Source: an uncultured Anaerolineales bacterium (GTDB lineage: Bacteria; Chloroflexota; Anaerolineae; CG2-30-64-16). Taken from it: 64,000 bases of DNA. A program made the position numbers and the translations under genes. The notes beneath the pieces are model-generated. The model did not search any database. It saw only the letters and a program-made list of their open reading frames with translations, and was not told the DNA's origin. The stretch's first letter is position 1. Each line of letters starts with the position of its first letter. Shown in pieces: positions 136 through 64,000 of this stretch. The DNA is taken from the NCBI GenBank assembly GCA_964513075.1, contig CAZELR010000002.1, positions 1,205 through 65,204 on the forward strand, read 5' to 3'.

Positions 136-1002
136 GTGAGAACTGATTTTGACCTGTTGATGTTCGGTCACTTCGCTGTCGACCATATCATCGTCGATGG
201 TGTGGCCGAGACCGTATCCGGCGGCGGCGTGTATTATGGCAGCGTCGCAGCCCGGCGGCTGGGTGCGCGGGTGGGCGTGGTGACCCGGCTGCGCGAAGCC
301 GACTTCCCCCGCCTGGAGGAGCTGCGCGCCGAGGGCGTGAGGGTCTTTGCCGCGCCCGCTGCCGAGACGTCGGGCATCGCCAACTATTACAACTCGGCCG
401 ACATGGAGCGCCGCGTCTGCGTGCCGCTGGGCTTTGCCGGGCCGATTCAGCCAGCCGATGTGCCGGATGCCCGCGCGCGTATCTACGCGATAACGCCTAT
501 CATCGCTGGCGAAGTGGATCTGGCACTCCTGAAGACGCTGGCTGGGCGCGGATCGGTGGCGCTGGATGTACAGGGCTTCGTGCGCGTCCGTGTGGGCGAT
601 GAACTGCTCTTCCGCCCCTGGCCGGAGATGGCCGAAGGGCTGCGCCACGTGACCTACCTCAAGGTGGACCGCGCCGAGGCCGAGTCGCTGACCGGCGAGA
701 CCGATCTCGCCATCGCGGCGCGCAAGCTGGCGGCGTACGGCCCCAAAGAGATCGTTCTCACCCAGTCGGCCGGTGTCACCGTCTACGCGGATGGCGGGCT
801 GCACTTCGCGCCCTTCACCCCGCGCTCCCTGGCCGGCCGCACCGGCCGCGGGGACACCTGCTTCGCCACCTACCTGACCAAACGCCTCTCGCTCTCCCCG
901 GCCGAGGCGTGCCGCTGGGCGGGCATCGTGACCACCCTCAAGCAGGAGCAGCCCGGCCCCTGGCGAGGAACGGTTGCGGAGGTGGAGCGGCTTTGGGGCT
1001 AG
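136..1002 (+). CDS. PfkB-family carbohydrate kinase (ribokinase-like)
   Basis: 288-aa ORF with GTG start after AAGGGAA; C-terminal GRTGRGDTCFAT matches the PfkB anion-hole signature; the antisense ORF 58..1029 has no recognisable domains. Confidence 0.75.
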   Translation: MRTDFDLLMFGHFAVDHIIVDGVAETVSGGGVYYGSVAARRLGARVGVVTRLREADFPRLEELRAEGVRVFAAPAAETSGIANYYNSADMERRVCVPLGFAGPIQPADVPDARARIYAITPIIAGEVDLALLKTLAGRGSVALDVQGFVRVRVGDELLFRPWPEMAEGLRHVTYLKVDRAEAESLTGETDLAIAARKLAAYGPKEIVLTQSAGVTVYADGGLHFAPFTPRSLAGRTGRGDTCFATYLTKRLSLSPAEACRWAGIVTTLKQEQPGPWRGTVAEVERLWG

Positions 1003-1041
1003 GGTTGTCAACTTTCCAATAGCTGGCAACCCTGGCTTTTC

Positions 1042-2826
1042 CTATCGGATGTGCCCAAGCGCATCCGATACTAGTGCTTCCGGTACTCCATCTACCATCT
1101 CGACCCGTCCGATATCGCGTATTACCACGAAGCGCAGGCTGCGGCCGCGGCGTTTCTTGTCCGTGCCCATCGCGGCCAGCGCTGCGTTCGGGTCGAAGGA
1201 GTAGCGGACCGGCAGGCCGTGGCGTTCGACCGCGCTGCGGATCTTTTCGGGCAGGTCAATCGCACACAGCCCCAGGCTCGCGCTGAGCTCGGCCGCGGCC
1301 ACCAGCCCCAGGCCCACCCCCTCGCCATGGCGCAGCGTGAACCCCGAGATGAGCTCCAGCGCGTGGCCGAAGGTGTGCCCCAGGTTCAGCCACGCCCGGT
1401 CGCCGGCCTCGAACGGGTCGCGTTCCACGATGTCAGCCTTGACCCGGACCGCGGCGGCGATCATGCTGACCATGTCGGGTGGCTTTGCGTGGTGCGTATT
1501 GTGGCGACCTGCGGGTCGTGATGCGTATTGCGTGTTGCGTGTTGCGTGTTGCGTCTCTTTTTCCGGACTCGGGGCTTCAGCCGGTTTCTCGGGGCAGCGG
1601 GAACAACCGGCTAAAGCCTCGATTCCGGTGTCCAGGCGGTCGAAGAGCTCCGGATCGCCGATGATGGCGGTCTTGATGATCTCGGCCATGCCGGAGCGCA
1701 ATTCGACGCCTGGCAGGGTGGCCAGCAGGTCGGGATCGATCAGCACCAACGCCGGCTGTTTGAACGCGCCGACCAGGTTCTTCCCCTCGGGCAGGTCCAC
1801 GCCCGTCTTGCCGCCCACACTGGAGTCCACCATCGCCAGCAGGCTGGTTGGGATCTGCACGAACGGCACGCCGCGCAGCCACGTGGCGGCCGTGAACCCT
1901 GCCATGTCACCGACCACGCCGCCGCCCAGCGCGATCACCGGCTCGTTGCGCGCCAACTTGGCGGCTGTCAGTTGGGCATACAGGCCGGCCATCGTGGCCA
2001 ACGTCTTGTGCTGCTCGCCGTCCGGAACCTCGCAGACCAGCGGCTCGAAGCCGGCCACGACAAGCGATGTGCGCAGCGTCTCCAGGTGATATTGTCCGAC
2101 CGTCGGGTTGGTGATCACCGCGCAGCGGCCCGGGGGCAGGCCGGCCTCGACGATGTGGCGTCCTGCTTGTCTTAGGACCCCGCCCGCGATGAGGACCGCG
2201 TAGCCAGACGAAGGACGAACGACGGACGACGAACGATGGATGACGGACGACGAATCGGCTCCTTCGTTCTTCGTCTTTCGTCTTTCGTCTCGTATGACGA
2301 GGCAGTGCCCGCCCTCGGGCAACCCCGCGACAATACCCAGCACCCGCTCGGCGGCCGCGGCGATGGTCAGGTTGCCGGTGTCCAGGTGATGCGGTATGGC
2401 GGCGTAGGCATCGGCGCGCTGCGCGAGGAGGGCCCGGATGCGCGCCAGGCGGTCGCCTCCGGCGAGCATGGGACGGCCGGCGTCATCTCCGACGCGGCGT
2501 AGGATCACCTCGGGCGCGGCGTCGAGGCAGATCACCGTGCCTCCAGCCGCCAGCGCCTCCCGGTTGGCCGGATCGATGGCCGCGCCCCCGCCCGTTGCCA
2601 CCACCAGCCCCTGCGGCGCGGCCAGCTCCCGGCAGACGGCGGCCTCCAGCGCCCGAAACGCATCTTCGCCGTCTTCGGCGAAGATGGCCGGGATCGGTTT
2701 GGCGGCGCGTTCTGCGATGACGTCATCGAGGCTCACAAACCGACGTCCCAGCCGCGCGGCCACGACAGGGCCGACGCTGGTCTTGCCGGTGCCCATGAAG
2801 CCGGTGAGGATGATATTTTGTGTCAT
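1042..2826 (-). CDS. aroB: Shikimate kinase fused to 3-dehydroquinate synthase (AroK-AroB, one continuous ORF)
   Basis: N-terminal GFMGTGKTSVG Walker A of shikimate kinase; downstream DHQ synthase motifs (GGGVVGDMAGF, SSVGGKTGVDL, LNLGHTFGHALE); real start MTQNIIL at 2826; the track ORF is extended through an upstream heptamer repeat; two repeat insertions are read in-frame. Confidence 0.8.
   Translation of the reverse strand: MTQNIILTGFMGTGKTSVGPVVAARLGRRFVSLDDVIAERAAKPIPAIFAEDGEDAFRALEAAVCRELAAPQGLVVATGGGAAIDPANREALAAGGTVICLDAAPEVILRRVGDDAGRPMLAGGDRLARIRALLAQRADAYAAIPHHLDTGNLTIAAAAERVLGIVAGLPEGGHCLVIRDERRKTKNEGADSSSVIHRSSSVVRPSSGYAVLIAGGVLRQAGRHIVEAGLPPGRCAVITNPTVGQYHLETLRTSLVVAGFEPLVCEVPDGEQHKTLATMAGLYAQLTAAKLARNEPVIALGGGVVGDMAGFTAATWLRGVPFVQIPTSLLAMVDSSVGGKTGVDLPEGKNLVGAFKQPALVLIDPDLLATLPGVELRSGMAEIIKTAIIGDPELFDRLDTGIEALAGCSRCPEKPAEAPSPEKETQHATRNTQYASRPAGRHNTHHAKPPDMVSMIAAAVRVKADIVERDPFEAGDRAWLNLGHTFGHALELISGFTLRHGEGVGLGLVAAAELSASLGLCAIDLPEKIRSAVERHGLPVRYSFDPNAALAAMGTDKKRRGRSLRFVVIRDIGRVEMVDGVPEALVSDALGHIR
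1487..1555. repeat. Degenerate heptamer tandem array (GTRYTGC units), family C
   Basis: gtgcgtattgtg...gtgatgcgtattgcgtgttgcgtgttgcgtgttgcgt; other arrays at 2843-2882, 6219-6275, 26107-26150 and 44551-44624. Confidence 0.7.
2205..2292. repeat. Imperfect hairpin repeat (GACGAAG units / CTTTCGT units), family A, copy 1
   Basis: Left arm of GACGAAC/GACGGAC units, right arm TTCGTCTTTCGTCTTTCGTC; second copy at 6755-6853. Confidence 0.7.
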
Positions 2827-2885
2827 GATCGAGGACTTTCTGATGTGCTGCGTGTTACGTGGTGCGTATTGCGTATTGCGTGAGA

Positions 2886-4103
2886 TCATGTGTCGTAGCC
2901 GAAGTGCCACGGCGCGTTGTCCATGGGGAGATCCTCTAATCGGCTTTGGCGGAGCGCGGCAAAGCGCGGCAATTGCTCGGCCAGCGAATCGCCGCCGAGC
3001 TTGCGCATCAGCTCATCCGCCAGGACCCAGGCGACCATCGCCTCGCCGATGACGACGGCGCGCGGGACCGCGCAGAAGTCGGAGCGCTCGTAGCGGGTGG
3101 CCGCGGCCTCACCCGTGGCCAGGTCCACGGACCGCAGCGGCGTGAGGGTGGTGGCGATGGGCTTCATGGCCGCGCGGAGCACGATCGGCTCGCCGGTGGT
3201 GATGCCGCCCTCCAACCCGCCGGCGCGGTTGGAAGCGCGCCCTATCTCCCCCGTTCTCCCCTCTCCTCCGGAGAGGATAGGGGCCGGGGCTGGGGACCCT
3301 ATCTCGTCATGCACCTGCGTGCCGCGCAGCCGCGCGTTGGCGAACGCGGGCCCGATCTCCGCGCCCTTGACGGCCTGAATCGACACAATCGCCGCGACCA
3401 GTTTCGCGTCCAGTCTGCGGTCGAAGTGCACGTGGCTGCCCAGTCCCGGCGGTGCGCCCAGCGCTACCACCTCGAACACCCCGCCCAGCGTATCCTTGGC
3501 CTGCATCGTATCGGAAATGGCGCGGTGCATAGCGTCTGCGGCGGCAGGGTCGGGGCAGCGCACGTCGTTAGTCTCGGCCAGCGTGAAGCGGTCCTCGTAA
3601 GGCAGATCGTCCGGAATCTTCGCGTCCACTTCGCCGATGCTGGTGATGTAGCCGCCCACGGTGATGCCGAACTGGGCCAGGTATGTCTTGCAGATCGCGC
3701 CGACCGCCACGCGCATGGCCGTCTCTCTGGCGCTGGCGCGCTCCAACCCCGGCCGCAGGTCGCGGTAGCCGTACTTGATCGCCGCGGCCAGGTCTGCGTG
3801 GCCCGGCCGCGGGATCGTCATGGGCGGGATGTCTTTTTCGGCCCATGCCCTGTAGTCCAGGTTGGCTACTTCCAGGCCGATGGGCCCGCCGGTGGTGCGG
3901 CCGGCAGTTACGCCCGCGGTGATGCGAACTGCGTCTCGCTCGATCTTCATGCGGCCACCTGCGCCATAAGCGATCTGCCGTCGCGCCAGCTCCCGGTCGA
4001 TGTCTTCGGCCGCGAGCGGCAGCCCGGCGATTATCCCTTCCAGGATCGCGGTCAGCTTTGGGCCGTGGCTTTCACCGGCGGTAAGGAAACGCAATATAGC
4101 CAT
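2886..4103 (-). CDS. aroC: Chorismate synthase
   Basis: MAILRFLTAGESHG N-terminus and RASNRAGGLEGGITTGEP signature; carries an extra in-frame insert (GSPAPAPILSGGEGRTGEIG) encoded by a palindromic repeat. Confidence 0.9.
   Translation of the reverse strand: MAILRFLTAGESHGPKLTAILEGIIAGLPLAAEDIDRELARRQIAYGAGGRMKIERDAVRITAGVTAGRTTGGPIGLEVANLDYRAWAEKDIPPMTIPRPGHADLAAAIKYGYRDLRPGLERASARETAMRVAVGAICKTYLAQFGITVGGYITSIGEVDAKIPDDLPYEDRFTLAETNDVRCPDPAAADAMHRAISDTMQAKDTLGGVFEVVALGAPPGLGSHVHFDRRLDAKLVAAIVSIQAVKGAEIGPAFANARLRGTQVHDEIGSPAPAPILSGGEGRTGEIGRASNRAGGLEGGITTGEPIVLRAAMKPIATTLTPLRSVDLATGEAAATRYERSDFCAVPRAVVIGEAMVAWVLADELMRKLGGDSLAEQLPRFAALRQSRLEDLPMDNAPWHFGYDT
3239..3307. repeat. CCCTATCTCC / GGAGAGGATAGGGG palindromic mini-element inside aroC
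   Basis: Three copies of the ccctatctc core in inverted arrangement; translated in-frame. Confidence 0.6.
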
Positions 4104-4104
4104 C

Positions 4105-5382
4105 CTACCCCAGCACCCGCACCAGGTGATACTGCTTCTTGCCCGTCCTCAAGACCACGTAGGCGCCTTCGATGACCTGCGCGATGGTGATAGCTCCCGA
4201 CGCGTCATCGACGCGCACGTTGTTGACGTAGGCGCCGCCCGAGGCGAGCAGCCGGCGCGCCTCGCCTTTGGACTTCACCGCGCCGGTCTCGACTAACAGG
4301 TCTACGAGCGGCTTGCCTTCTCCCTCGAACGCCGTCTTCGGCTGCTCGCTGGCCGGCACGTCGGCAAAGATGTCGGCGATGTCCGACGCAGCCAGGCCTT
4401 CGATGGCGCCGCCGAAGAGCACTTGCGATGCCTTTTCAGCGTCGGCTAAGGCTTGGTCGCCGTGCACCAGCCGCGTCACCTCGCGCGCCAAGGTTCGCTG
4501 CGCGTCCCGGCGTTCGGGATGTTCCCGCGTCGCGGCCTCTTGGGCGGCGATCTCATCCGCGGTCAGCCAGGTGAAGTAGCGCAGGAAGTTGACCGCATCG
4601 GTGTCAGGCTGGTTCAGCCAGAACTGGTAGAAGCGGTACGGCGAGGTGCGCTGGGGATCCAACCAGATGGCGCCCTGTACGGTCTTGCCCAGCTTAACCC
4701 CCTCGGCGCCGGTGACCAGGGGGTAAACCATGCCGTAAGCCCGGGCGCCTTTGACGCGGCGGATCAGCTCGACGCCCGCGGTGATGTTGCCCCACTGATC
4801 GCTGCCGCCGGCCTGCAGGGTGCAGCCGAAGCGCTCGTGCAACTGCAGGAAATCGTAGGCTTGCAGCAGCATGTAGCTGAACTCGGCGTACGAGATGCCG
4901 TCCTGCCGGTCGAGCCTTGATTTGACCGAGTCCTTGGCCATCATGTAGTTCACCGTGAAGTGCTTGCCCACGTCGCGCAGGAAGTGCATCATCGGGATGG
5001 TGGTCAGCCAGTCGGCGTTGTTCACGATGCGGGCAGGGTTAGTGCGGACTTCGAAATCGAGGAAGCGCGCCAACTGGCCGCGAATCGCCTCCACATTGAC
5101 TGCAATCGTCTCCAGGCTTTGCAATTGGCGCTCCTGGCTTTTGCCGCTAGGGTCGCCGATCATGCCAGTGCCGCCGCCCGCGAGTGCGATGGGGGTGTGT
5201 CCCGCGCGCTGCATGCGCGCCAGTCCCATCAGCGCCAGTAGATTCCCCACCTGGAGGCTGGTCGAGGTCGGGTCGAATCCGATGTAGGCGGTCACCTTTT
5301 CCTGGGCCAAGGTATCAGGCAAGCCTTCGGTGAAGTCATACACCAGGCCGCGCCAGTGGAACTCATCGAAAACGTTGGTCAT
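4105..5382 (-). CDS. tyrS: Tyrosyl-tRNA synthetase (class I, with C-terminal S4 domain)
   Basis: GFDPTSTSL...[22 protein letters not shown] core, KLGKT (KMSKS) motif and S4-like C-terminus; the HIGH motif reads QVGN; embedded in the aro operon with overlaps on both sides. Confidence 0.85.
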
Positions 5383-6283
5383 TTGCTTCTAGCTCCTTTC
5401 TCATCAGTCGGGCAAGACTGCCCGCATCGATTCCTGTCCACAATGCTGCCGCTTGCGCGCCCTGGTGCACCAGCATCCCCAGCCCATCGATGGCTGTGGC
5501 GCCTTGCGACCGGGCCAGCGCCAGCAGCGCGGTGGGCCGGTGATAGATCAGATCGTACACCACCTGGTCCGACCGGAACGCCGCATCCGGCTCCCACGGC
5601 AGCGCATCCCCTGCGTGTAACCCTAAACTGGTCGCGTTGACGATCAGGTCGGCCCAAGGCGCCAGCTTCGGCAAGGCGCCGGGAAACGCATGTGCGCTCA
5701 GCCGGTCAGTCGCATCGGGCAGGGCCGCGCACATTGCTCGACATAATCTATCAGCATGCTCCGGCGTCCGGTTGGCGACGGCCACCTCCGCACCGGCCTC
5801 CAGCAGCGCATAGGCCACCGAGCGTGCCGCGCCGCCAGCGCCGAGGACGATGGCTCGGCGACTTCGCACCCCATGCGCCTGTAAATCCGCCATGAATCCC
5901 GCGCCGTCGGTGTTGTCGCCCAACAGTGAGCCATCGGCCCGCACGATAAGGGTGTTCACAGCCCCCGCCGCCTGCGCCATCGGCGTCAGTTCGTCTAGGA
6001 AGGGCATGACCGCCTGCTTGTGCGGCACGGTAACATTGGCTCCTGCGAAGCCAAGCGCAGCCAGCCCGGCCACAGCCTCGCCCACGCGTTCCGGCGCCAC
6101 CGGCAGCGGCACATAGACCCAATCCAGTCCTAGCGCCGCATACGCCGCGTTGTGCATCGCCGGGCTCAGGCTGTGGTCCACCGGCCAGCCGAGCAGGCCG
6201 ACCAGGCGGGTTGCGCCCGTGATGCGTGATGCGTGATGCGTGGTGCGTGGTGCGTATTGCGTATTGCGTACTGCTTTAGTCAT
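5363..6283 (-). CDS. aroE: Shikimate dehydrogenase
   Basis: [12 protein letters not shown] and GDNTDGAGF motifs plus an NAD(P) Rossmann fold ([15 protein letters not shown]); the ATG at 6283 overlaps the aroA stop (ATGA); the first ~24 aa are encoded by a heptamer repeat array. Confidence 0.85.
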
Positions 6284-7710
6284 TCGTCCATCGCTGATTC
6301 GTCACTCGCCCACTCGATTTCCGCCCCCAGGGACCTCATCGTCTCCACGAAGCTCGGGAACGAGTCACCGATTGCTTCGGCCCCCCGGACGGTGGTCTGA
6401 CCGCCTGCAACCAGGCCGGCCACCGCGAGGGCCATGGCCAGGCGATGGTCATGGTGGCATTTTACCACAGCACCTCTCAGTTGGGTGGGTCCGGTCACAA
6501 TCATGCCGTCCGGTCGTTCCTCGATAGTCGCGCCCATCTTCCGTAGCTCTGTCGCGACCGAAGCAATGCGGTCCGACTCCTTAACTCGCAGCTCACCGGC
6601 CTCGCGCACGACTGTTACGCCCTCCGCCTGCGTCGCGGCTACGGCGAAGATCGGGAACTCGTCGATCGCACGCACGATCAGGTCGCCGGCGGCTTCTGTG
6701 GCGCGCAGGGCGGCGCCCTGAACGGTGATGTCGGCGATCGGTTCGCCTGTCGCGGATGAAGGACGAAGGACGGACGACGAAGGACGAAGGACGGATGACA
6801 AGGTGCTTTCCTGCGGGTCGGCGCTTTCGTCTTTCGTCTTTTGTCTTTCGTCAGTCACGCACATCTTTGCTCCCATCGCCGCCAGCAGATCATACAGCCC
6901 CGTGCGAGTGGGATTGACGCCGACGCCGGGCAGCCGGATCTCTGAGCCCGGCACGATCGCGGCCGCGACCAGTGGAAACGCGGCGGAGGAGAAATCGGCG
7001 GGGATAGTGATGCCGTCGAGAGGCGCGCGCAATGCTTGCCCGCCGCGCAAGCGAACGGTCAGCTCTTGGGACTCGACGGCCACACCGAAGTCGCGTAGCA
7101 TGCGTTCGGTGTGATCGCGCGATGGTCCCGGCTCGTGAAGGATCGTCTCACCTTCAGCGAACAAGCCCGCCAGCAGGATGGCCGACTTGACCTGAGCACT
7201 GGCGACCGGCAGGCGGTAATCGATGCCCCGCAGGTTGCCGCCCTGGATAGTGAGCGGCGGCAGCCGGCCGCCGTCGCGGCCCAGCACCGTCGCGCCCATC
7301 AGCCGCAGCGGCTCGGCGACCCGGCCCATGGGGCGGCGGCGCAGCGGCTCGGTTCCGGTCAGCACGCTGGTGAACGGCTGCCCTGCCAGGAGCCCGGCCA
7401 GCAGCCGGATGGTAGTGCCCGAGCCGGCGCAGTGCAAAACGTCCTCCGGTTCGGTCAAGCCGTGCAGGCCGCGGCCGCGGATGAGCAGATCGGAGCCGAA
7501 ACCTGTCTTCTGGTCGTCAATGCTCACTCCGAGGGCCTGCATACAGCGCAGCGTCGCCATGCACACCTCCGCCGGCACCCAGCCGCGGATGCGCGTCTCG
7601 CCGTCGGCCAACGCGGCCAGGATGATTGCCCGGTGGGTGATCGATTTGTCGCCCGGCACGGTGGCTTGTCCGCGTAACGGGCCGGAAGGGTGGATGATCA
7701 GGTCTCGCAT
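6280..7710 (-). CDS. aroA: 3-phosphoshikimate 1-carboxyvinyltransferase (EPSP synthase)
   Basis: MRDLIIHPSGPLRGQATVPGDKSITHRA matches the AroA N-terminus; start chosen at ATG 7710, although the track ORF extends to 7770 through a GTTGAAT repeat; contains an in-frame hairpin-repeat insertion. Confidence 0.85.
   Translation of the reverse strand: MRDLIIHPSGPLRGQATVPGDKSITHRAIILAALADGETRIRGWVPAEVCMATLRCMQALGVSIDDQKTGFGSDLLIRGRGLHGLTEPEDVLHCAGSGTTIRLLAGLLAGQPFTSVLTGTEPLRRRPMGRVAEPLRLMGATVLGRDGGRLPPLTIQGGNLRGIDYRLPVASAQVKSAILLAGLFAEGETILHEPGPSRDHTERMLRDFGVAVESQELTVRLRGGQALRAPLDGITIPADFSSAAFPLVAAAIVPGSEIRLPGVGVNPTRTGLYDLLAAMGAKMCVTDERQKTKDESADPQESTLSSVLRPSSSVLRPSSATGEPIADITVQGAALRATEAAGDLIVRAIDEFPIFAVAATQAEGVTVVREAGELRVKESDRIASVATELRKMGATIEERPDGMIVTGPTQLRGAVVKCHHDHRLAMALAVAGLVAGGQTTVRGAEAIGDSFPSFVETMRSLGAEIEWASDESAMDE
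6755..6853. repeat. Family A hairpin repeat, copy 2 (inside aroA)
   Basis: gaaggacgaaggacggacgacgaaggacgaagg ... ctttcgtctttcgtcttttgtctttcgtc. Confidence 0.7.
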
Positions 7711-7726
7711 GGTGAGTACCGTATGT

Positions 7727-8605
7727 TCAATGTTGAATGTTGAGTGTCGAACGTTGAATGCGGTGATCATGGGCGCGCGTCAGGGTTGTCCGCAGTGTGG
7801 GCTCGTCCTCTGCTGCCAGTGATTCACGCAAGCCTGCGAGCTGCGCCGCATAGGCGTCCAGCCAGTCCAGCACGGCCGAACGATTGGTCAGCAGGATGTC
7901 CAGCATCATGTCCACGTCGCTGGCGGCCAGGCGGGTGGTGTCGCGGTAGCCGGATGCTGCCAGCGACCGGGCTAACGGATCATCGGCGGTCGAGACGGTG
8001 TTGACCAGCGCGGCCGCGACCGCGTACGGCAGATGACTGATGGCTGCCACGGCCCGATCGTGCGCGGCCGGGTGCAGGATGACCGGCCGTGCACCGACCG
8101 CCTCTACTAACGCGCGGGCCTGGGCCAGCGCAGCGCCCGATGTCCGCGACAGGGGACAGAGAACAAAGGTCTTGTTGCGGTAGAGCCCCGCCTCAGCCGC
8201 CGCGAACCCGGCTAGCTCCTTGCCGCACATGGGATGTCCGCCCACAGGCTGCAATTCTGGGGGCAGGTTTGCTAGCGCCGCACAAATCTCGACTTTGGTG
8301 CTGCCCAGGTCGAGCACCAGCGCGCCGGGCCTGGCGGCGCGGCCCACCTCCGGCAGTTGGCGCAGGATCGTGCGGGCCGGCGTGGCGAGCACGATCACAT
8401 CAGCGTCTGCCGCGCCCTCAGCCAGGTCGGTCGTGCCAAAATCAATTGCGCCGGCCTCAAGCGCCGCGCCGAGCGTCTCTTGCCTGCGCGCGACGCCGAC
8501 GATGCGTTGAACGCCGTCCCCGGAACCTTCAGCCTCCCGCAGCGCCAGCGCCAGCGATCCCCCCATCAGTCCAAGCCCCACGATGCACACAGTCGGCAAG
8601 TTCAT
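7727..8605 (-). CDS. tyrA: Prephenate/arogenate dehydrogenase
   Basis: N-terminal Rossmann fold IVGLGLMGGSLALAL; TyrA-family length and layout; lies in the aro operon between the DAHP synthase and aroA. Confidence 0.8.
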   Translation of the reverse strand: MNLPTVCIVGLGLMGGSLALALREAEGSGDGVQRIVGVARRQETLGAALEAGAIDFGTTDLAEGAADADVIVLATPARTILRQLPEVGRAARPGALVLDLGSTKVEICAALANLPPELQPVGGHPMCGKELAGFAAAEAGLYRNKTFVLCPLSRTSGAALAQARALVEAVGARPVILHPAAHDRAVAAISHLPYAVAAALVNTVSTADDPLARSLAASGYRDTTRLAASDVDMMLDILLTNRSAVLDWLDAYAAQLAGLRESLAAEDEPTLRTTLTRAHDHRIQRSTLNIQH

Positions 8606-8702
8606 TATTTCCGCCTCACAAGGTTTCCCCCTGGCTCGGTCAGAGACCGGCCAGAGCGAACTGCTCCCCTGCTCCCTTTCTCCCCTGCTCCCCCGCTCCC
8701 CC

Positions 8703-9728: not shown

Positions 9729-10973
9729 CTACTCCGCCGCCGGATAGCTTCCCAGCAACTTCAGAAACGCTGTGCGGGTCAACAGGCCCAGCAGTGCCCG
9801 ATTAACGGTGGCATCCTGCCAGTGGCCTTCCATATCGACATAAAATACATAGTGCCACGGCCGGTTGCGCCGCGGCCGGCTTTCGATCTTAGTCAGATTG
9901 ATCCCCCGGTTGGCGAATTCGCCCATGACGTTGTACAACGCGCCAGGCGTGTGCATGGTGGCGAATACGATGGAGGTCTTGTTGTGTTTAGCAGGCGGCG
10001 GCTCCTCACGTCCCAGCAGGAAGAAGCGGGTCGTGTTGTCGGGTGAGTCTTCGATGCCTGCGTCCAGGATCGTCAGCCCATAAGTCTGACCGGCCAGCGC
10101 GCTGGCGATGGCAGCCGTGCCGGGCGCCGGGTTCCGGGCCAGCTCAGCCGCGGCGCCGGCCGTGTCATAGGCCGGCACCGCCTCCCAGCCGCGCAGGCGC
10201 AGATAGCGGCTGCACTGCGCCAGCGCCTGGGGGTGTGAGTGGACGCGGCGGATATCTGTCTGCTGGGTGCCCTCGGGCGCCAGCAGGCAGTGGCGCACCC
10301 GCAGCTTCACCTCGCCCACCACGCGCAGGTCGTGATCCAGCAGCAGATCGTAAGCTTGGTTGATGGAGCCTGCCTGTGAGTTTTCAACTGGGAGCAGCCC
10401 CAGGGCCGCCCGGCCCTCCTCCACTGCAGTGAAGATGTCGCCAAAGCCGGGACAGGCCAGGGTTGCGGTCTGTGCGCCCAGGTGTTGAAAGATCGCTTCT
10501 TGCGAGTAAGCGCCCGGCTCGCCCTGGAAGGCGACCACCTGGCGACCCTGACCGAGTGCTGAGCCGTTCTTGTGCGATTCCGGGGGTTCTGCCGGTGGGG
10601 GTGCAGCGAACTCGCCTTGCAGGTCCGGCCGCAGCACAACGGCGTCACGCAGGTAGATGTGACGGACATCGTAGATTGGGCGCTCGGTATTCCAGTGCAG
10701 CAGGATCCGGATGGTGCGGGGCAGTCCGCCGGGCGTCGCGATCTCCACGGCGTCGAGCAACGGCACGTGGTGCCAGCCCAGCTCGCGTGCAGCCCGTGCC
10801 GGGAACGCGGCGTCCAGATCCGGCGTCATTGTGAAGGTGGCGCTGGCCAGGTCTTCCACCTGGATACTGTTTGCCGCGACCAGCGCGGTCAGTAGTTCCC
10901 GGGTGACGTCCAGGATGGCTTGGGACGTGTTTTCGGTTGCAGTTGTGGCGCCGCGGACACCTCTAACGGGCAT
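9729..10973 (-). CDS. pheA: Chorismate mutase (AroH class) fused to prephenate dehydratase and ACT domain
   Basis: N-terminus [11 protein letters not shown]...MTPDL...[14 protein letters not shown] resembles B. subtilis AroH; followed by a PDT domain ([14 protein letters not shown]) and a C-terminal ACT; true start is ATG 10973 with GAAGGAGG upstream; the track start at 11021 lies inside a terminator hairpin. Confidence 0.85.
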
Positions 10974-10990
10974 GAGTCCTCCTTCAGGAA

Positions 10991-11025
10991 ATAAAAAGAG
11001 CGTGGGGGCTGGTGCCTCCACGCTC
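10991..11025 (-). terminator. Intrinsic terminator (attenuator) immediately upstream of the pheA RBS
   Basis: Minus strand reads gagcgtgg-aggcaccagccc-ccacgctc followed by TTTTTAT, directly before the pheA RBS. Confidence 0.5.
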
Positions 11026-11053
11026 GGCTTGACTGATCAGGCTGGACTGCGCT

Positions 11054-11170
11054 TCATTGCTTCAGCGGCGCCAAGGTTCCAGCCGGCGCGGGGGCTAGCC
11101 GGGGCGGGCTGGAATAATAAAAGAAGAAGCTGGCGCTAACTGAAACAATGCGCATAGGTGCATTTCTCAT
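11054..11170 (-). CDS. Putative Phe/Tyr-rich leader peptide (MRNAPMRIVSVSASFFFYYSSPPRLAPAPAGTLAPLKQ)
   Basis: 38-codon ORF between the predicted promoter and the terminator in the pheA leader; contains a consecutive FFFYY run. Confidence 0.4.
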   Translation of the reverse strand: MRNAPMRIVSVSASFFFYYSSPPRLAPAPAGTLAPLKQ

Positions 11171-11200
11171 TGCGTTACTGGATTTTTCAAGAACGACGGG

Positions 11201-11229
11201 ATCATAGCACGGCAACTAAAAACTGTCAA
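11201..11229 (-). promoter_or_regulatory. Sigma70-like promoter of the pheA leader (TTGACA-17-TATGAT)
   Basis: Minus strand reads TTGACA gtttttagttgccgtgc TATGAT, about 25 nt upstream of the leader-peptide ATG. Confidence 0.5.
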
Positions 11230-11265
11230 ACGCCAAGATGTTGGCGGGGTGTGGCTACCCATCTG

Positions 11266-13615: not shown

Positions 13616-13646
13616 AAAGGTGGCATCTCGCCGAGATGCCACCTTT
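13616..13646 (-). terminator. Intrinsic-terminator-like hairpin in the glnA 5' leader
   Basis: 14-bp perfect stem aaaggtggcatctc / gagatgccaccttt with a 3-nt loop, followed on the minus strand by ATTTTTCTT, 28 nt before the glnA ATG. Confidence 0.55.
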
Positions 13647-19637: not shown

Positions 19638-22600
19638 TCATCCCAATAATCGTCCCTCCAGCCGTTGCACCCACGCCGCCTGATCGCTGAGCGTGGCGGC
19701 CAGGTGGCCGGGGTCGTGGCCGTAGCCCAGGCGGCGGGCCAGGAACGCAAACTCCTCACTCCCTTCGGGTGGCACGGTGAGGTCCTTGCTGTTGCCGCGC
19801 ACGACCCGCAGCGCGTTGATAAGTTGCTGGAGGAAGATGTGCGCCTGGTGGAGGCGATGGGCGTTTTCCTGTGACAGGAAGCCGTGAGCCGCCAGTGCGG
19901 CGATGGCCGCGCGGGTGTTAGTGAGGCGCAGGTCGGGGTGGACCGCGCCGTGCCGCATCTGCAATCCCTGTACGACGTACTCCACATCCACCAGCCCGCC
20001 CAGGCTGTACTTGGCGTTGAATGCGCCTGGGGTGACGATGTGGCGGAGTTGCCGTTCGCGCATCGCGCGCATGGCGGCCACGTCGAAGCTGCCGGCATCA
20101 TACACGTAGGCATCGCGCAATGCCTCCACCTGCCGGCCCAGGTCGGCGTCTCCAGCGATGGCACGCAGCTTAATGAGGGCCTGCCGCTCATAGGCCCAGG
20201 CGGGACCCTCAGGCGCGAAGTAGCGGCGGAACGCGTCTAGCGGCACGGCAAGACTGCCGGCCTTGCCGTAAGGACGCAGCTCCAGGTCGATCTCAAAGAT
20301 GCCCTCGCGGCGGGCCCAGATCGCGCGGCCGAACTCCGTCACAAGTTTGTCGAAGAATTCAGCGGCGCTGGTGGCACGTGGGCCGCTTGTCTGTCCCGAT
20401 CCGGCGTAGATGAACATCACCTCGATGTCGGACGCGTAACCCAACTCGAAGCCGCCGCATTTGCCCAGCACGCAGACTGCCAACGGGATAGGCGCGCCGT
20501 CTGCCCCGCGCGGCGTGCCGTACTGCGCGGCCAGCTCCTCCTGCACCATGCGTGCGGCCGCTGCGACCACCGTTTCCACCAGGTCGGTCAGCTCGCCGGA
20601 GAACGCGTCGAAGTCCCGCGTATGACCCAGGATATGGCGCATGTCGATGCGGAACATCTCCCGATCCTTGAATGCGTTTAGCGCCGCACGTCGCGCCCCA
20701 AGATCAGGCGCAGTGGCAATTAACGTGCTCAGTTCTGCAGCCAGCTCGACCTTGCGCCGCGGCGCAGCCAGCGCGTCGACATCGGCCACCACCGGGAAGA
20801 GGTTCGCATACTGCATGCGCAGGAAGTCGTCCCAGAGAAACTCGCTGACCCCCAACAGCCGGGCGAGCGCATCCAATACCTCGGGTCGCTCCAGCGAGGC
20901 CAAGTCATCGGGCCATGAGGGTCGGCTGAACAGCTCGCCCAGATACTCGTGGAAGTGCAACAGCGCGGATTCCGGGTTGGGCGAACGCGGCAGCAGGTGG
21001 GTGAAGTGCTTGATGAGCACTGTGGCTGCGCGCAGCTCCCGCTGCCTGTCAGGTGCGGTGATCTTGCCGCCGCGGCTGTCTGTAACAAGGAGCGTGTCCT
21101 GCACCCGGTTGCCTGTCGAGATCACGGACACCTGGCTGATGTGGATGCCGCGCAAGGCCAGGGCGTTGGTGAACTCGTAGAGAAAACCGGGCGTGTCGGC
21201 CGCGCTGATGCGGAGGACGGTGTAGGCTGGCGATGCATCATTGTCGATCTCGATATCTACTGGGGGCAGTGCAGGCGCGGTTGCGATGCTGACCTGCAGC
21301 GCCTCGGCCACGCGTTTGGCCAGTACGCCCTGGGCCATGCGCTGTTCGCGCGCTTGCAGCAGTTCCACCAATGCCAGCAGGTCTGCGCTGTAACGCGGCC
21401 AGATCTTCTTATCAGGCTGCACCGTCGCCACCGGCCGCACCTGGAATACGTCGACAATCTTCCGCCGCGCGTCTGCTGCCTGTCCTCTCTCCCCTGCTCC
21501 CTTGCTCCCCCGCTCCCCAGCTTCCACTCCGGGCTCATACGTATACACATGCCCGTCCACGATGCTGAAGCCGTATGCGAACAACAGCCCGCAGATCACC
21601 GACAGCTCGCCCAGATAGTCGTAGCCAACGATGGTGACGCGCCAGAGATCATCGGCCAGCGGCCGCGCCTCCACCGTAACCGGTGTGGACGCATCCAGCC
21701 GGGCGGCCATGCTCGCGTGTCGCTCGACCTCTGCCGGATCGAAGGTGGCCGCGTAGGAGGGCGCCAGCCGCGCCAGGTGCAAGCGGACCGTGTCCGCCCG
21801 GACCGTGTCCGCCCGGGCTGTGTGCACCTGCAGCGTGTCTTCGTGCGTGGGTGTTGTTTTGGTTGGCTGTTCCGGGATCATGGTCAGGCCTCCGGATGGG
21901 GAGTGGTGTAGGGTCGCGGCTGTGGGCGCCGTCAGATGACGCAGATAGATCGCACGCACTGCCTGGCTGTGCTGCTGGTAGCGCGCAGTGAAATGGACGC
22001 GGGCGTCAGGGCCCTGGAAGCCCAGTCGGCGGGCCAGGTAACGCAGGTCGGCCGGGTTGGCCGGCAGCGTGTGCGTCTGGCGGTAGTCGAGGATCTGCAG
22101 GTAGTGCTCGACCGTGCGCAAGAAAGTGTAGCCCTCCGCCAGGATGCGATGGTCTTCGGCCGGCAAGTAGCCGGCCTCGGCCAGCCGTGCCAGCGCCTCA
22201 CGCGTGTTGCCGGTGCGCAGGCCCGGATGCTCGCGGCCGTGGGCCAGTTGCAGGTATTGGGCCACGAATTCGGCGTCGCGGATGGAACCCTCTCCCAATT
22301 TGACCTCGCCCCAGGTGCGGCCCGCCTCGCGCAGGTGGGCCTCGGTGGCCTGTTTCATGCCGTGCACCTCGACGCGCACCTCCTCCGGGCTTGCGCTGAA
22401 AAGCCGGGGTTCGGCACGGCGCAGGAAGTCCGCCCCGATCTGCTCATCGCCCGCCATAACCCGCGCCTTCAGCAGCGCCTGACGCTCCCAGAGCCGCGCA
22501 TACCGCTCGAGGTAGGCCAGGTAGCCATCGACTGTCGAGACTAGCGGACCGACGCGACCCCAGGGCCGCAGCCGCATGTCGACGCGGTACAAGAATCCTT

Positions 22601-23964: not shown

Positions 23965-23988
23965 GCTTTAATTCCAGTCACAAACCCT

Positions 23989-24033
23989 CGTTTTCCAAAC
24001 CAGGTTTCGCCGAGAAACCTGGTTTGGAAAACG
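23989..24033. repeat. REP-like perfect 20-bp palindrome with 5-nt loop
   Basis: cgttttccaaaccaggtttc-gccga-gaaacctggtttggaaaacg; related core aaacc(a/c)gg(a/t)ttc in the 29448-29486 palindrome. Confidence 0.7.
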
Positions 24034-24037
24034 AGAT

Positions 24038-26786: not shown

Positions 26787-26810
26787 AGCGTATTCCTGGT
26801 CAGTGTGCCT

Positions 26811-26845
26811 CAAGTTTGGCATCCCTCGCAGGGATGCCAAACTTG
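26811..26845. repeat. Perfect 15-bp palindrome with 5-nt loop between ccmH and ccmG
   Basis: caagtttggcatccc-tcgca-gggatgccaaacttg; no flanking U-tract on either strand. Confidence 0.65.
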
Positions 26846-26851
26846 AGTTGC

Positions 26852-29441: not shown

Positions 29442-29447
29442 TCACCT

Positions 29448-29486
29448 ATCAGAAACCCGGATTCAGGGAGAATCCGGGTTTCTGAT
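29448..29486. repeat. REP-like perfect 17-bp palindrome with 5-nt loop between convergent genes
   Basis: atcagaaacccggattc-aggga-gaatccgggtttctgat. Confidence 0.7.
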
Positions 29487-29511
29487 ATGCATGGTTTCGG
29501 TTGGCGTCTTG

Positions 29512-32366: not shown

Positions 32367-32798
32367 GGAGCGAGGCGCCCGGGGTGTCTTGCCTCTTCTC
32401 TGAGGTTTGCGCCCTGAAAAAAGTTGTGCTAGGATAACCCAGCAGAACCCTGCCGTGCTCGTGATGTTCCAACAGCGTTTTGAGCCAACATGAATACAAA
32501 GGGAGCTGGACATCCCGGCCGGAGATGCAATAGCTGCGCACGCCGCTTCGTGTGACGTGCGTCTTAGCAAAGCAGAACTGACCGGCAAGGCACCCACCTG
32601 CGAAAGCAGGTTCAAAACAGTCGAGCACACGGCACAGCGGGGGACTCAGAATATAAACGGCCATTTGGGAATGCCCAGATGGCCGTTTTGAGTTTTGTAA
32701 AACCCTTGACATAGCCTCTCGGATTGTGCTATTCTTGATCCAACAGCCGTCCGTGCTGGTGCCGACCGGCCGATTCCTAGTCTTAATCGAGGAACCCT

Positions 32799-44550: not shown

Positions 44551-44624
44551 CACTACGCACCGCGCACCACGCAATACGCAGTACGCAATACGCAGTACGC
44601 AATACGCAGTACGCAATACGCTAC
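44551..44624. repeat. Heptamer/14-mer tandem array (ACGCAATACGCAGT x3-4), family C
   Basis: Intergenic between the DUF4037-like gene and mmdB. Confidence 0.7.
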
Positions 44625-48316: not shown

Positions 48317-48402
48317 GGAGAGGTCGCATAGTTGGCCTAGTGCGCGCGTCTCGAAAACGCGTATCCCGGAAGGGATCGTGGGTTCGAATCCCACCCTCTC
48401 CG
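48317..48402 (+). tRNA. tRNA-Ser (anticodon CGA)
   Basis: Cloverleaf with GGAGAGG/CCTCTCC acceptor stem, anticodon loop CTCGAAA, long variable arm, GTGGGTTCGAATCCCAC T-arm. Confidence 0.85.
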
Positions 48403-48428
48403 CCTGTGCCGGCCAGTGCTGGAATGAA

Positions 48429-48604: not shown

Positions 48605-48694
48605 GGAGAGGTCGCATAGCTTGGCCTAGTGCGCACGACTGGAAATCGTGTATCCCGAAAGGGATCGAGGGTTCAAATCCCTCCCTCTCCGCCA
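48605..48694 (+). tRNA. tRNA-Ser (anticodon GGA), CCA encoded
   Basis: Same acceptor stem, anticodon loop CTGGAAA, long variable arm, GAGGGTTCAAATCCCTC T-arm, 3' GCCA; TTATAAT about 12 nt upstream. Confidence 0.85.
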
Positions 48695-50928: not shown

Positions 50929-50932
50929 TGAA

Positions 50933-50968
50933 GACGGACAAGCCATTTATGGCCTGTCCGTCTTTTTC
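50933..50968 (+). terminator. Intrinsic terminator of the SRP RNA gene
   Basis: gacggacaagcc-attta-ggcctgtccgtc followed by TTTTTC. Confidence 0.65.
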
Positions 50969-58426: not shown

Positions 58427-58459
58427 ACACCCTAAGGGTCTCGAAGACCCTTAGGGTGT
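58427..58459. repeat. Perfect 14-bp palindrome with 5-nt loop between pbpC and the alpha-2-macroglobulin gene
   Basis: acaccctaagggtc-tcgaa-gacccttagggtgt; no U-tract. Confidence 0.65.
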
Positions 58460-62541: not shown

Positions 62542-64000
62542 TCAGTGGACAAGCTTACCGGATTCCGGCTCGGCCGCAACCAAATCGGCGCCACTGGCGT
62601 CTGTCCAAAGCCGGCGCATCCCCTCCGACGTTGCCAGCAGTTCATCCAGCGTGCCTTCGGCTTCCACGCGGCCATCCAGCAGCACGATGATGCGATCGGC
62701 CCGGCGCAGCACCGCGCGGCGGTGGGAGACGGCAAGAACGGTCGCGGGGGTTGAAGGTTGGAAAGTTGAAGGCGCAAGGTCGTCATCACCCCCCGAGCCT
62801 TCATTTCCGTCTTTAAACCCTGAACCTTCGACCTTAAACTTTGAACCTTGAACCTTCAACCCCACGCGCTCCCACAGGATCTCCTCCGTCTGCACGTCCA
62901 GCGCGCTGGAGAGGTCATCGAAGACCAACAGCTCAGGCGCGCGCGCGAACATGCGCGCCGCGGCTGCGCGCTGCACCTGGCCGCCGCTCAGCCGCACCCC
63001 GCGCGGTCCGACGAGGGTGTCCAGGCCATGCTCCAACGTGGCGATGTCGGGTTCCAGCACCGCGCGCCAGATGGCATACTGTATCTCACCCTCTATCCCC
63101 ATCAGTACATTCTCTCGCAGCGTCGCGCTGAACAGGCGCGGCACCTGGGCGGTGTAGGCGGCGCACGGCCGGCCCCGCGGCGGCGAAGCCAACAGCGCGG
63201 CCGGATCGACCACAGGCTCGCCGTCCCACACGATCTCGCCCGCGTCGCGGGCCAGCAGGCCCAGCACGGCGCGCAGCAGCGTCGTCTTGCCCGAGCCGAT
63301 CTGCCCGGTGATGACCACGAAGCTGCCGCGGGGCACGCTGAAGGTGACGTCCCGCACGCCGCGATCGGCACCTGGATGGAAACAGGTGAGGTGGCGCACT
63401 TCCAGGAGGGGCGGCAGAGGCCCAGTTCCGGGAGAAGACGGCGTCACCCTGAGCGAGTCTGCGGCGCAAGGTTGGCTGCGGCTCAAGCTCAGCGAAGGGT
63501 CTTGTTGGCCGGGTTGAGATCCTTCGCTGGGGTCTCGGCGTGACTGCTTTTGGGCCGACAACCCGCTCAGGGTGACTTTCTGGTGGGTCATGGGGTGATG
63601 TTCCACCAGTACCTCCGGCGGCTCATCCGGGATCAGTTCGACCAGGCGGCTGATGGCCACCTCCTGCTGCTTGATGTCGCCGACGAAGCTGCCCAGGTAC
63701 GACGGTAGGTCGGTGGTGAACCACAGGTAGTAGGTGAACAGCGCAAAGTCACCCACGGTGAACGCACCCTGTGTCATCGCCTGCCCCGCCAGCAGCAGCA
63801 TCACCCCAACACCGACCACGACTGCGATGCTGTTCATAGAGAAGGCGAGCTCTTCCAGCACCGCGGCCCGGATCGTGGCCCGGCTGCGCGTCTCGGCCAG
63901 CCGGCTGAAATGGGCGACGGTGTGCGTCTCGGCGCCGGCCACTTTCACCGCCTGGACCGCGCCGAACAGCTCGGCTAGGAAGCCGATCACCGCGTCCCCG
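62542..64000 (-). CDS. ABC exporter, fused permease/ATPase; N-terminus outside the window
   Basis: Walker [10 protein letters not shown], signature LSGGQVQR, Walker B LLVFDD; ORF remains open at the window edge; carries a repeat-encoded in-frame insert before the H-loop. Confidence 0.8.
62748..62862. repeat. Family B hairpin with large loop inside the ABC transporter gene
   Basis: ggttgaaggttggaaagttgaagg ... ccttcgaccttaaactttgaaccttgaaccttcaacc. Confidence 0.7.

Follow-up and report, generated by a model that had tools for sequence, protein, structure and literature searches.

The aro cluster and the enlarged loop of AroC

The window, by which we mean the whole 64-kb stretch of DNA analyzed here, encodes a chorismate synthase (AroC) in an intact open reading frame, surrounded by an aro cluster whose other members were assigned from the list of open reading frames together with Pfam matches:

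1042-2827: AroK-AroB fusion
2886-4103, minus strand: aroC, chorismate synthase, 405 amino acids
4105-5382: TyrS
5363-6283: AroE

The window AroC matches Pfam family PF01264 from end to end (profile positions 1-327 of 327, E = 1.5e-113, 379 bits), and its best solved relative in a PDB search is the Aquifex enzyme (1q1l, E = 5e-111); the full-length profile match and the matches to solved structures place it in this family. Across 81 homologues many positions do not vary, among them R289..N292-R293-x-G295-G296-L-E-G-G directly after the insert that is the subject of this analysis, and the conserved RxSNRAGGLEGG segment behind the insert is intact in the window protein.

The insert forms an enlarged loop between the VHDEI and RASNRAGG segments, which is where a preliminary description of this DNA had located it, and contains the following features:

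3240-3299, minus strand: enlarged AroC loop, residues 269-288 (GSPAPAPILSGGEGRTGEIG)
3240-3248, plus strand: first copy of the direct repeat CCCTATCTC, encoding E-I-G on the minus strand
3260-3276: surviving central hairpin, CCTCTCC tcc GGAGAGG, with a 7-bp stem (3260-3266 / 3270-3276) and a 3-nt loop
3297-3305, plus strand: second copy of CCCTATCTC, overlapping the conserved E267-I268 codons

The preliminary description had the element adding about 20 amino acids. The same loop, however, has 8-9 residues in the solved chorismate synthases of Aquifex, S. pneumoniae, and M. tuberculosis (PDB alignment) and 8-10 residues in the bare-loop close relatives of the window AroC. Because ordinary chorismate synthases already have 8-9 amino acids at this position, the net extension is ∼11-12 amino acids rather than 20, and the window insert looks more like a replacement of the ancestral 8-9-residue turn than a clean insertion.

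The internal structure of the insert is modest. Its hairpin can alternatively be drawn as 11 bp with one mismatch, the 14-nt arms being 79% complementary, and GGAGAGGATAGGGG is present at 3270-3283, but the 75-nt insert region folds no better than shuffled sequences (z = -0.10 on the coding strand and +0.62 on the other strand). The repeated 9-mer is mildly unusual, with 0.23 occurrences expected and at least two in 3 of 100 shuffles. No second copy of the element was found in the 64 kb with exact or mismatch-tolerant patterns, a hairpin scan, regular expressions, or a covariance model run with filters off, and an Rfam scan of positions 1000-6500 returned chance-level matches alone (E about 0.8-0.9). 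From the window sequence by itself a repeat origin would be suggested at most, and it becomes convincing only through the comparison with orthologues.

Repeats in the AroC loop of related Anaerolineae

The 120 best AroC homologues are proteins from Anaerolineae MAGs, 68-91% identical to the window AroC and 392-461 amino acids long, and nearly all of their length variation is confined to this single loop. The loop is bare in 54 of them (45%; e.g., VHDEIVRDADGNLRRASNRAGG), and in the rest it is extended by inserts that add as many as about 67 residues and fall into at least four classes: SPPxPLLxGEG...GGLG, which includes the window AroC, and further GAEPVEAPSALRQAQG, PGTSEVPGTS, and ...QRSAVIG. 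In a neighbor-joining tree built with the loop masked, bare loops and the insert classes are intermixed; this tree is approximate, and the number of independent events is uncertain. The DNA of the closest relatives was obtained through exact-protein look-ups, and 166 further loci came from genome and metagenome collections, scans of which with the AroC protein returned, among the matches listed, mostly relatives that are ≤69% identical. The loop could be parsed in roughly 130 of these loci, most of which are bare, with hairpin elements or arrays of tandem heptamers occupying the site in a minority. Because the bare state is common and the classes are interleaved, we regard AroC insertion as sporadic and not phylum-wide, and both data sets speak against a loop conserved across the phylum with non-repetitive DNA, the finding that the preliminary description had named as its refutation.

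The closest comparison is provided by locus L081, whose aroC is 89.5% identical to that of the window at the nucleotide level and whose protein (P0001) shows 91% identity in the local alignment. The L081 insert occupies the same codons as that of the window, is equally long, and is a perfect nested 58-nt palindrome, CTATCCTCACCCC-cga-CCCCTCTCCTG-ggcg-CAGGAGAGGGG-tca-GGGGTGAGGATAG, with a folding z of -8.65 against -0.10 for the window copy. This palindrome consists of two head-to-head copies of CCCTCTCCC-loop-GGGAGAGGG-n3-GGGGTGAGGG. The two inserts agree at 38 of 57 positions (67%), against 89.5% for the whole gene, so that the insert has diverged faster than its surroundings. The simplest reading of these alignments would be a single ancestral element that stayed intact in the L081 lineage and eroded in the window lineage, although the equal length in both could in principle also reflect two independent acquisitions of related elements.

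The hairpin-plus-tail unit recurs in related Anaerolineae loci, in intergenic as well as intragenic positions, and the consensus of 30 such copies, CCCCTCTCCCnnnGGGAGAGGGGnnnGGGGTGAGGGA, agrees with the published TM_ECO pattern and with the Table 1 sequences of the same paper (PMC4666352). BoxC/PIT/TM_ECO, known as BoxC or PIT in older work cited by Holder et al., is a G/C-rich intrastrand triplex motif, CCCTCNCCC-N3-6-GGGNGAGGG-N3-GGGNGAGGG (Holder et al. 2015, PMC4666352), of which 3610 copies were counted in 262 proteobacterial genomes; cyanobacteria contain large numbers of G/C-rich triplex motifs, and the motif forms a triplex in vitro, with none detected in vivo (PMC4666352).

A covariance model (R1) built solely from Anaerolineae copies recovered, with full-length matches of 49.8 and 43.2 bits, two copies that lie between hrpB and mrcB of E. 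coli K-12. The same model scored 41-42 bits on both strands of L081, as expected of a head-to-head pair, 46 and 25 bits on the antisense strand of the AroC inserts of L087 and L169, and 31-59 bits at seven strong matches in the 21-kb locus L150. Its top match in the window lies at 3258-3283 and covers model positions 3-32, with 12.7 bits and an E value of about 0.04 on a rough calibration. On these scores we consider the family link of the Anaerolineae copies to the E. coli BoxC/PIT/TM_ECO motif firm and the window copy's own score marginal. Matching the pattern directly to the insert gave two overlapping copies:

3259-3295, plus strand (antisense to aroC): decayed triplex-motif copy, CCCTCTCCT-cc-GGAGAGGAT-a-GGGGCCGGGGCTGGGG, 5 substitutions from the pattern
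3248-3282, minus strand (coding): second, more decayed triplex-motif copy, 6 substitutions, with the central hairpin common to both

A match with 5 substitutions was equalled by 1 of 200 shuffles. Since the two window copies lie on opposite strands and share the hairpin, the ancestral element would have been a head-to-head pair, i.e., a palindrome. With 5-6 substitutions the window copy falls outside the published definition, which allows at most one stem mismatch, whereas the copy in L081 and no fewer than 26 of those in related loci agree with the published pattern exactly or with ≤2 substitutions. From its score of 12.7 bits and its status as the sole copy in 64 kb we take the window copy to be a relic, and because the 64 kb hold no other copy, its family membership rests mainly on the orthologue; related genomes have many copies. 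It appears to be a decayed derivative of the triplex-motif family and not an intact member. Where the preliminary description saw a palindromic element inserted in frame into aroC, the strings it quoted are present, the segment is repeat-derived, and the frame is kept, but the palindrome has decayed and its structure is down to shuffle level. The GTAG/CGTC REP superfamily was also considered for this element and rejected, as the tag is missing: GTAG/CTAC is absent from 3236-3310, and the sole CGTC (3304-3307) belongs to conserved Asp-Glu codons outside the element.

Besides the window and L081, at least five loci carry the triplex-motif family in the same AroC loop. L009, L150, and L159 have the tail of the motif on the sense strand, L087 and L169 have it on the antisense strand, and L081 has it on both, and the presence of the two orientations points to several independent events. 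The DNA of the non-triplex insert classes shows further palindromes and heptamer arrays. Heptameric tandem repeats occur in cyanobacteria as well as in other bacteria, and although the window AroC insert is itself no tandem array, arrays of this kind are found both in the same loop of other Anaerolineae and in other aro genes of the window. Their presence in the loop suggests that it accepts any short repeat, and from these sequences the AroC loop would be a permissive or unstable hot spot for repeats.

Intragenic copies and the mode of arrival

Repeats in this group of genomes are by no means restricted to aroC. In related loci, 30 of 40 copies of the hairpin family lie inside long open reading frames, including those of AroE, AroA, AroK, and AroC, and in the window heptamer-repeat segments are present in the AroB domain and in the AroK-AroB linker, at places where relatives have other repeats or none. 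Both observations bear out the early suggestion that these elements tolerate, or target, coding regions. Intragenic sites shared between genomes recur in AroE (before VLGAGG), AroA, AroK, a putative dehydrogenase, and AroC. At those in AroA, AroE, AroK, and the putative dehydrogenase, genomes share 88-100% identity in the three 9-nt blocks against 51-76% in the 60-nt flanks, while the element loops vary freely and the element itself is read in differing frames. The class-C palindromes of L084 and L086 differ by paired changes, such that the palindrome stays perfect. The nucleotide conservation of the intact copies in other genomes hints at some function or active maintenance, for which a neutral-passenger model does not account.

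Such conservation could mean that the element works at the DNA or RNA level, through pausing, mRNA processing, recombination, or protein binding in the aro operon, and is kept regardless of the peptide it encodes. Near-identical blocks in diverged flanks and in differing frames would be explained in this way, as would the palindrome-preserving changes between L084 and L086. Repeated insertion of the element, or gene conversion among its copies, could produce the same conservation equally well, however, and earlier experiments in E. coli detected neither promoter nor terminator activity of the motif, nor a stable triplex in vivo (PMC4666352). Because the window copy has lost both motif and structure while its gene remains intact, any DNA- or RNA-level role is dispensable here, and we consider it unlikely as an explanation of the window insert.

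The manner in which such elements arrive can be read most directly from L083 and L084, which are 96.9% identical and represent a bare loop and a loop filled with a class-C palindrome, respectively. Between them, 18 nt have been replaced by 45 nt; the 45-nt segment of L084 contains the perfect palindrome, there is no duplication, and the flanks are identical up to the junctions. All remaining differences lie upstream of the loop, with none in about 360 nt downstream, which suggests a recombination breakpoint at the loop. The triplex-motif alleles also replace the ancestral turn, at junctions that differ from those of class C.

These junctions bear on a MITE-type insertion, in which the two CCCTATCTC repeats would be the target-site duplication around a 48-nt element mobilized by a transposase. 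Two exact 9-mers lying 57 nt apart, a multiple of 3, where chance predicts 0.23 occurrences, give this idea its appeal. The orthologous L081 copy has no such direct repeat, though, and excision would reduce the segment to HDEIG-RASN, with 8 residues fewer in the loop than in any bare-loop relative, which is impossible as an ancestral state; on these two grounds we rejected the 9-nt repeat as a target-site duplication. The window insert does not show the terminal inverted repeats and target-site duplication by which a MITE is recognized, the filled and empty pair L083/L084 exhibits replacement without duplication (for a class-C element), and neither a transposase nor any other mobilizing activity has been linked to the triplex-motif family (PMC4666352). 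A MITE at this site is quite improbable.

We infer from the sequence comparisons that the acquisition fits patch replacement better than cut-and-paste transposition with target-site duplication, and that the window stretch is probably the decayed remnant of a palindromic BoxC/PIT/TM_ECO pair in aroC. Two repeats of the BoxC/PIT/TM_ECO type, head to head, would have come to lie in frame at the tip of a surface β-hairpin between HDEI and RxSNRAGG. In each ancestral unit a C-rich block and a loop would be followed by a G-rich block complementary to the first and then, after a short spacer, by another G-rich block. The pair would have replaced the 8-9-residue turn and then decayed by mutation to the roughly 57-nt remnant seen today. 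A structure-prone site may have had its patch replaced, without target-site duplication, in the course of break repair, through template switching, or by allelic recombination, after which selection would have kept those products that stay in frame and free of stops in a permissive loop. The loop would collect repeats by virtue of being structurally permissive while insertions elsewhere are removed by selection, and hairpin- or triplex-forming DNA may in addition make it prone to breakage, templated repair, or recombination. The triplex family seems extinct or rare in this genome by now, so that the copy would no longer be maintained and would be eroding.

Consequences for the protein and for the repeat family

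The preliminary description had raised structural modelling as a way to see whether the insert falls in a flexible loop. An AlphaFold model of the window AroC made with the 81-sequence alignment (mean pLDDT 84.6, pTM 0.88) predicts just that, the insert appearing as a coil between two short strands with a pLDDT that averages 51 at residues 271-280 and drops below 50 at 275-279. From this model the extension is best understood as a tolerated disordered loop, and its Gly/Pro/Glu/Ser-rich peptide would be a passenger with no enzymatic role. Like other in-frame intragenic repeats, the insert is absent from many related orthologues, introduces neither a stop nor a frameshift, leaves the conserved motifs in place, and occupies a surface or loop position that is compatible with the fold, as judged from the AlphaFold model and the PDB homologues. 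In the S. pneumoniae enzyme the residues that bind FMN, which we take to be Asn251, Lys311, and Thr315, lie in the SINAFKG and MKPIPT segments, outside this loop; their numbering agrees with the PDB alignment of AroC, an agreement that concerns position in the sequence and implies nothing about distance. The review PMC7144000 gives no account of this loop.

The long loop is kept in frame in the window AroC, in P0001, and in the second-closest homologue, P0002, and adjoins the highly conserved RxSNRAGGxEGG segment, and one could take it for an adaptive, lineage-specific addition whose DNA only resembles a repeat and which modulates, e.g., oligomerisation, access of the flavin, or the binding of a partner. 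Such a role is very unlikely for a low-complexity peptide that is predicted to be disordered, is hypervariable among close relatives and missing from 45% of them, outpaces the rest of the gene in divergence, and is encoded by DNA matching a dispersed repeat that is also present in intergenic DNA. Scarcely credible is a chance G/C-rich low-complexity expansion, e.g., by slippage, unrelated to any repeat family: it would account for a window copy that has no significant structure, is unique in the window, and reaches a model E of only about 0.04, but not for L081, the closest relative, where the same codons are occupied by an equally long intact element, nor for a pattern match that beats 199 of 200 shuffles or for the same family in the same loop of at least five other loci.

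As a probable decayed BoxC/PIT/TM_ECO pair, the window insert can be set beside several known systems. The Anaerolineae copies share with the E. coli motif the same three blocks, the palindromic head-to-head pairs, and local variability between close relatives, and in E. coli the motif is tied to increased local rearrangement between strains (PMC4666352). The 23 copies of E. coli K-12 are described as always intergenic (PMC4666352), whereas the Chloroflexota (Anaerolineae) copies lie mostly in coding sequences and in frame, the window copy within aroC among them. Rickettsia RPEs and intragenic GTAG/CGTC REPs resemble the AroC insert in being short in-frame palindromes in housekeeping genes that encode fold-compatible peptides and vary in presence or absence among orthologues (PMC3733652, PMC10969869). 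The AroC insert is unrelated to them in sequence, and RPE-1 is about 150 bp long (PMC3733652, PMC10969869); REPs are also linked to RAYT transposases, in contrast to the triplex motif with no known mobilizing enzyme. In-frame palindromic repeats and the triplex repeat family are thus both already known, and what appears new is the Chloroflexota host, the location within genes of repeats that had been described as intergenic, and a hot spot of several repeat classes in one loop. The open-access papers and preprints that we searched contained no description of the triplex family in Chloroflexota genes or of an AroC hot spot.

A more far-reaching proposal, which we offer as a tentative speculation, is that the triplex motif is actively maintained in Anaerolineae, or repeatedly re-created, inside housekeeping genes at preferred sites. 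If true, this would imply sequence-specific homing or gene conversion, or selection for a function at the DNA or RNA level, and it would explain how near-invariant 9-nt blocks come to lie beside diverged codons and in differing reading frames. The tip of the AroC hairpin would then be a targeted hot spot at which structure-forming repeats replace one another.

With its presence in Anaerolineae, the triplex motif extends to another phylum and is found within essential genes instead of between them. The filled, empty, and replaced alleles of AroC form a natural series for tracing how such a repeat arrives, be it by transposition, templated repair, or recombination, and the same series could show whether non-B DNA drives local hypervariability of a protein. 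For the annotation and structural study of shikimate-pathway enzymes, variation in the length of the AroC loop would be repeat noise and not functional divergence.

Palindromic inserts in the AroC loop

Two aroC alleles from related Anaerolineae loci, L083 (1003-2181) and L084 (768-1973), are 96.9% identical, and between them 18 nt are swapped for a 45-nt segment holding the perfect palindrome CGTGCCAGGCACTTC-G-GAAGTGCCTGGCACG. Every other difference between these alleles lies upstream of the loop, with 0 in the 360 nt downstream. A third locus, L086, also has this element; its sequence changes there are paired and leave the palindrome perfect. In the related locus L167, the aroC gene (10001-11245) has an insert of another sequence class, class B, consisting of the palindrome GCTGAGCCTGTCGAAG...CTTCGACTAGCTCAG and encoding the peptide AEPVEAPSALRLAQG. 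When 16-mers of this insert were compared with one mismatch allowed, a second site with 16-mers in common was found ∼9.5 kb upstream on the same contig (L167:495).

Relative to L081, the closest orthologue locus, the left end of the insert in the window shows a block change from CCTA to AGGG, which created a 9-nt direct repeat, GAGATAGGG, at 3240-3248 and 3297-3305. One possible source of this block change is template switching from one arm of the former palindrome to the other.

Repeat-built segments, tandem arrays, and hairpins in the window

A single minus-strand ORF of the window (1042-2827) encodes shikimate kinase fused to 3-dehydroquinate synthase; its true ATG is probably at about 2827, downstream of the ORF-list start at 2910. 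Repeats make up the linker of this fusion (2193-2290), and the ∼40-aa segment separating the two DHQ-synthase Pfam domains is also repeat built. The same AroK-AroB fusion is found in the relatives L167 and L169, where the repeat content at both segments differs from that of the window.

Tandem arrays of heptamers are numerous in the window (their units include TGCGTAT/CGTGTTG, GGACGAA, GGTTGAA, CCACTGA, and AACCTTG), and three places carry octamer arrays. The heptamer arrays resemble those known from cyanobacteria. Several lie within ORFs or at gene boundaries (the variable region of AroB, the linker between AroK and AroB, and the 5' end of AroE), and translation gave the peptides that the arrays encode. 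We also observed a 20-bp hairpin at 59511-59560, formed by two heptamer arrays in inverted orientation, AAGGTTGAAGGTTGAAGGTT ... AACCTTTAACCTTCAACCTT. Other long, near-perfect hairpins have stems of 14 to 22 bp, and two of them have a GAAACC(T/C)GG(T/A)TT core in common; these may act as terminators or belong to a further dispersed family of palindromes. Separately, two adjacent tRNA-Ser genes are 88% identical across 73 nt.

Repeats and related features of the window
1517-1554, 2207-2290, 2845-2881, 6218-6274, 6754-6852, 7723-7760: heptamer tandem arrays
44569-44621, 58737-58838, 59506-59533, 59728-59873, 62816-62861: heptamer tandem arrays
8661-8701, 21489-21522, 59095-59137: tandem arrays with octamer units, CTCCCCTG / GCTCCCCT
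23987-24035, 29445-29489, 26809-26847, 13616-13646, 32655-32688, 50931-50964, 58427-58459: long near-perfect hairpins
48317-48404 and 48605-48694, plus strand: tRNA-Ser genes, anticodons CGA and GGA

Triplex motifs in AroA, AroE, and AroK

Three other aro enzymes carry intact triplex motifs (the BoxC/PIT/TM_ECO repeat) in frame, at the same sites in different Anaerolineae genomes.

Triplex motif sites (locus:position)
AroA: L024:8203, L031:4639, L033:8122, L150:8072
AroE: L008:366, L009:3986, L133:1163
AroK: L107:2314, L118:12106, L124:12065

The three 9-nt blocks of these motifs are conserved far more strongly than the codons on either side, and the motif is read in different frames at the shared sites.
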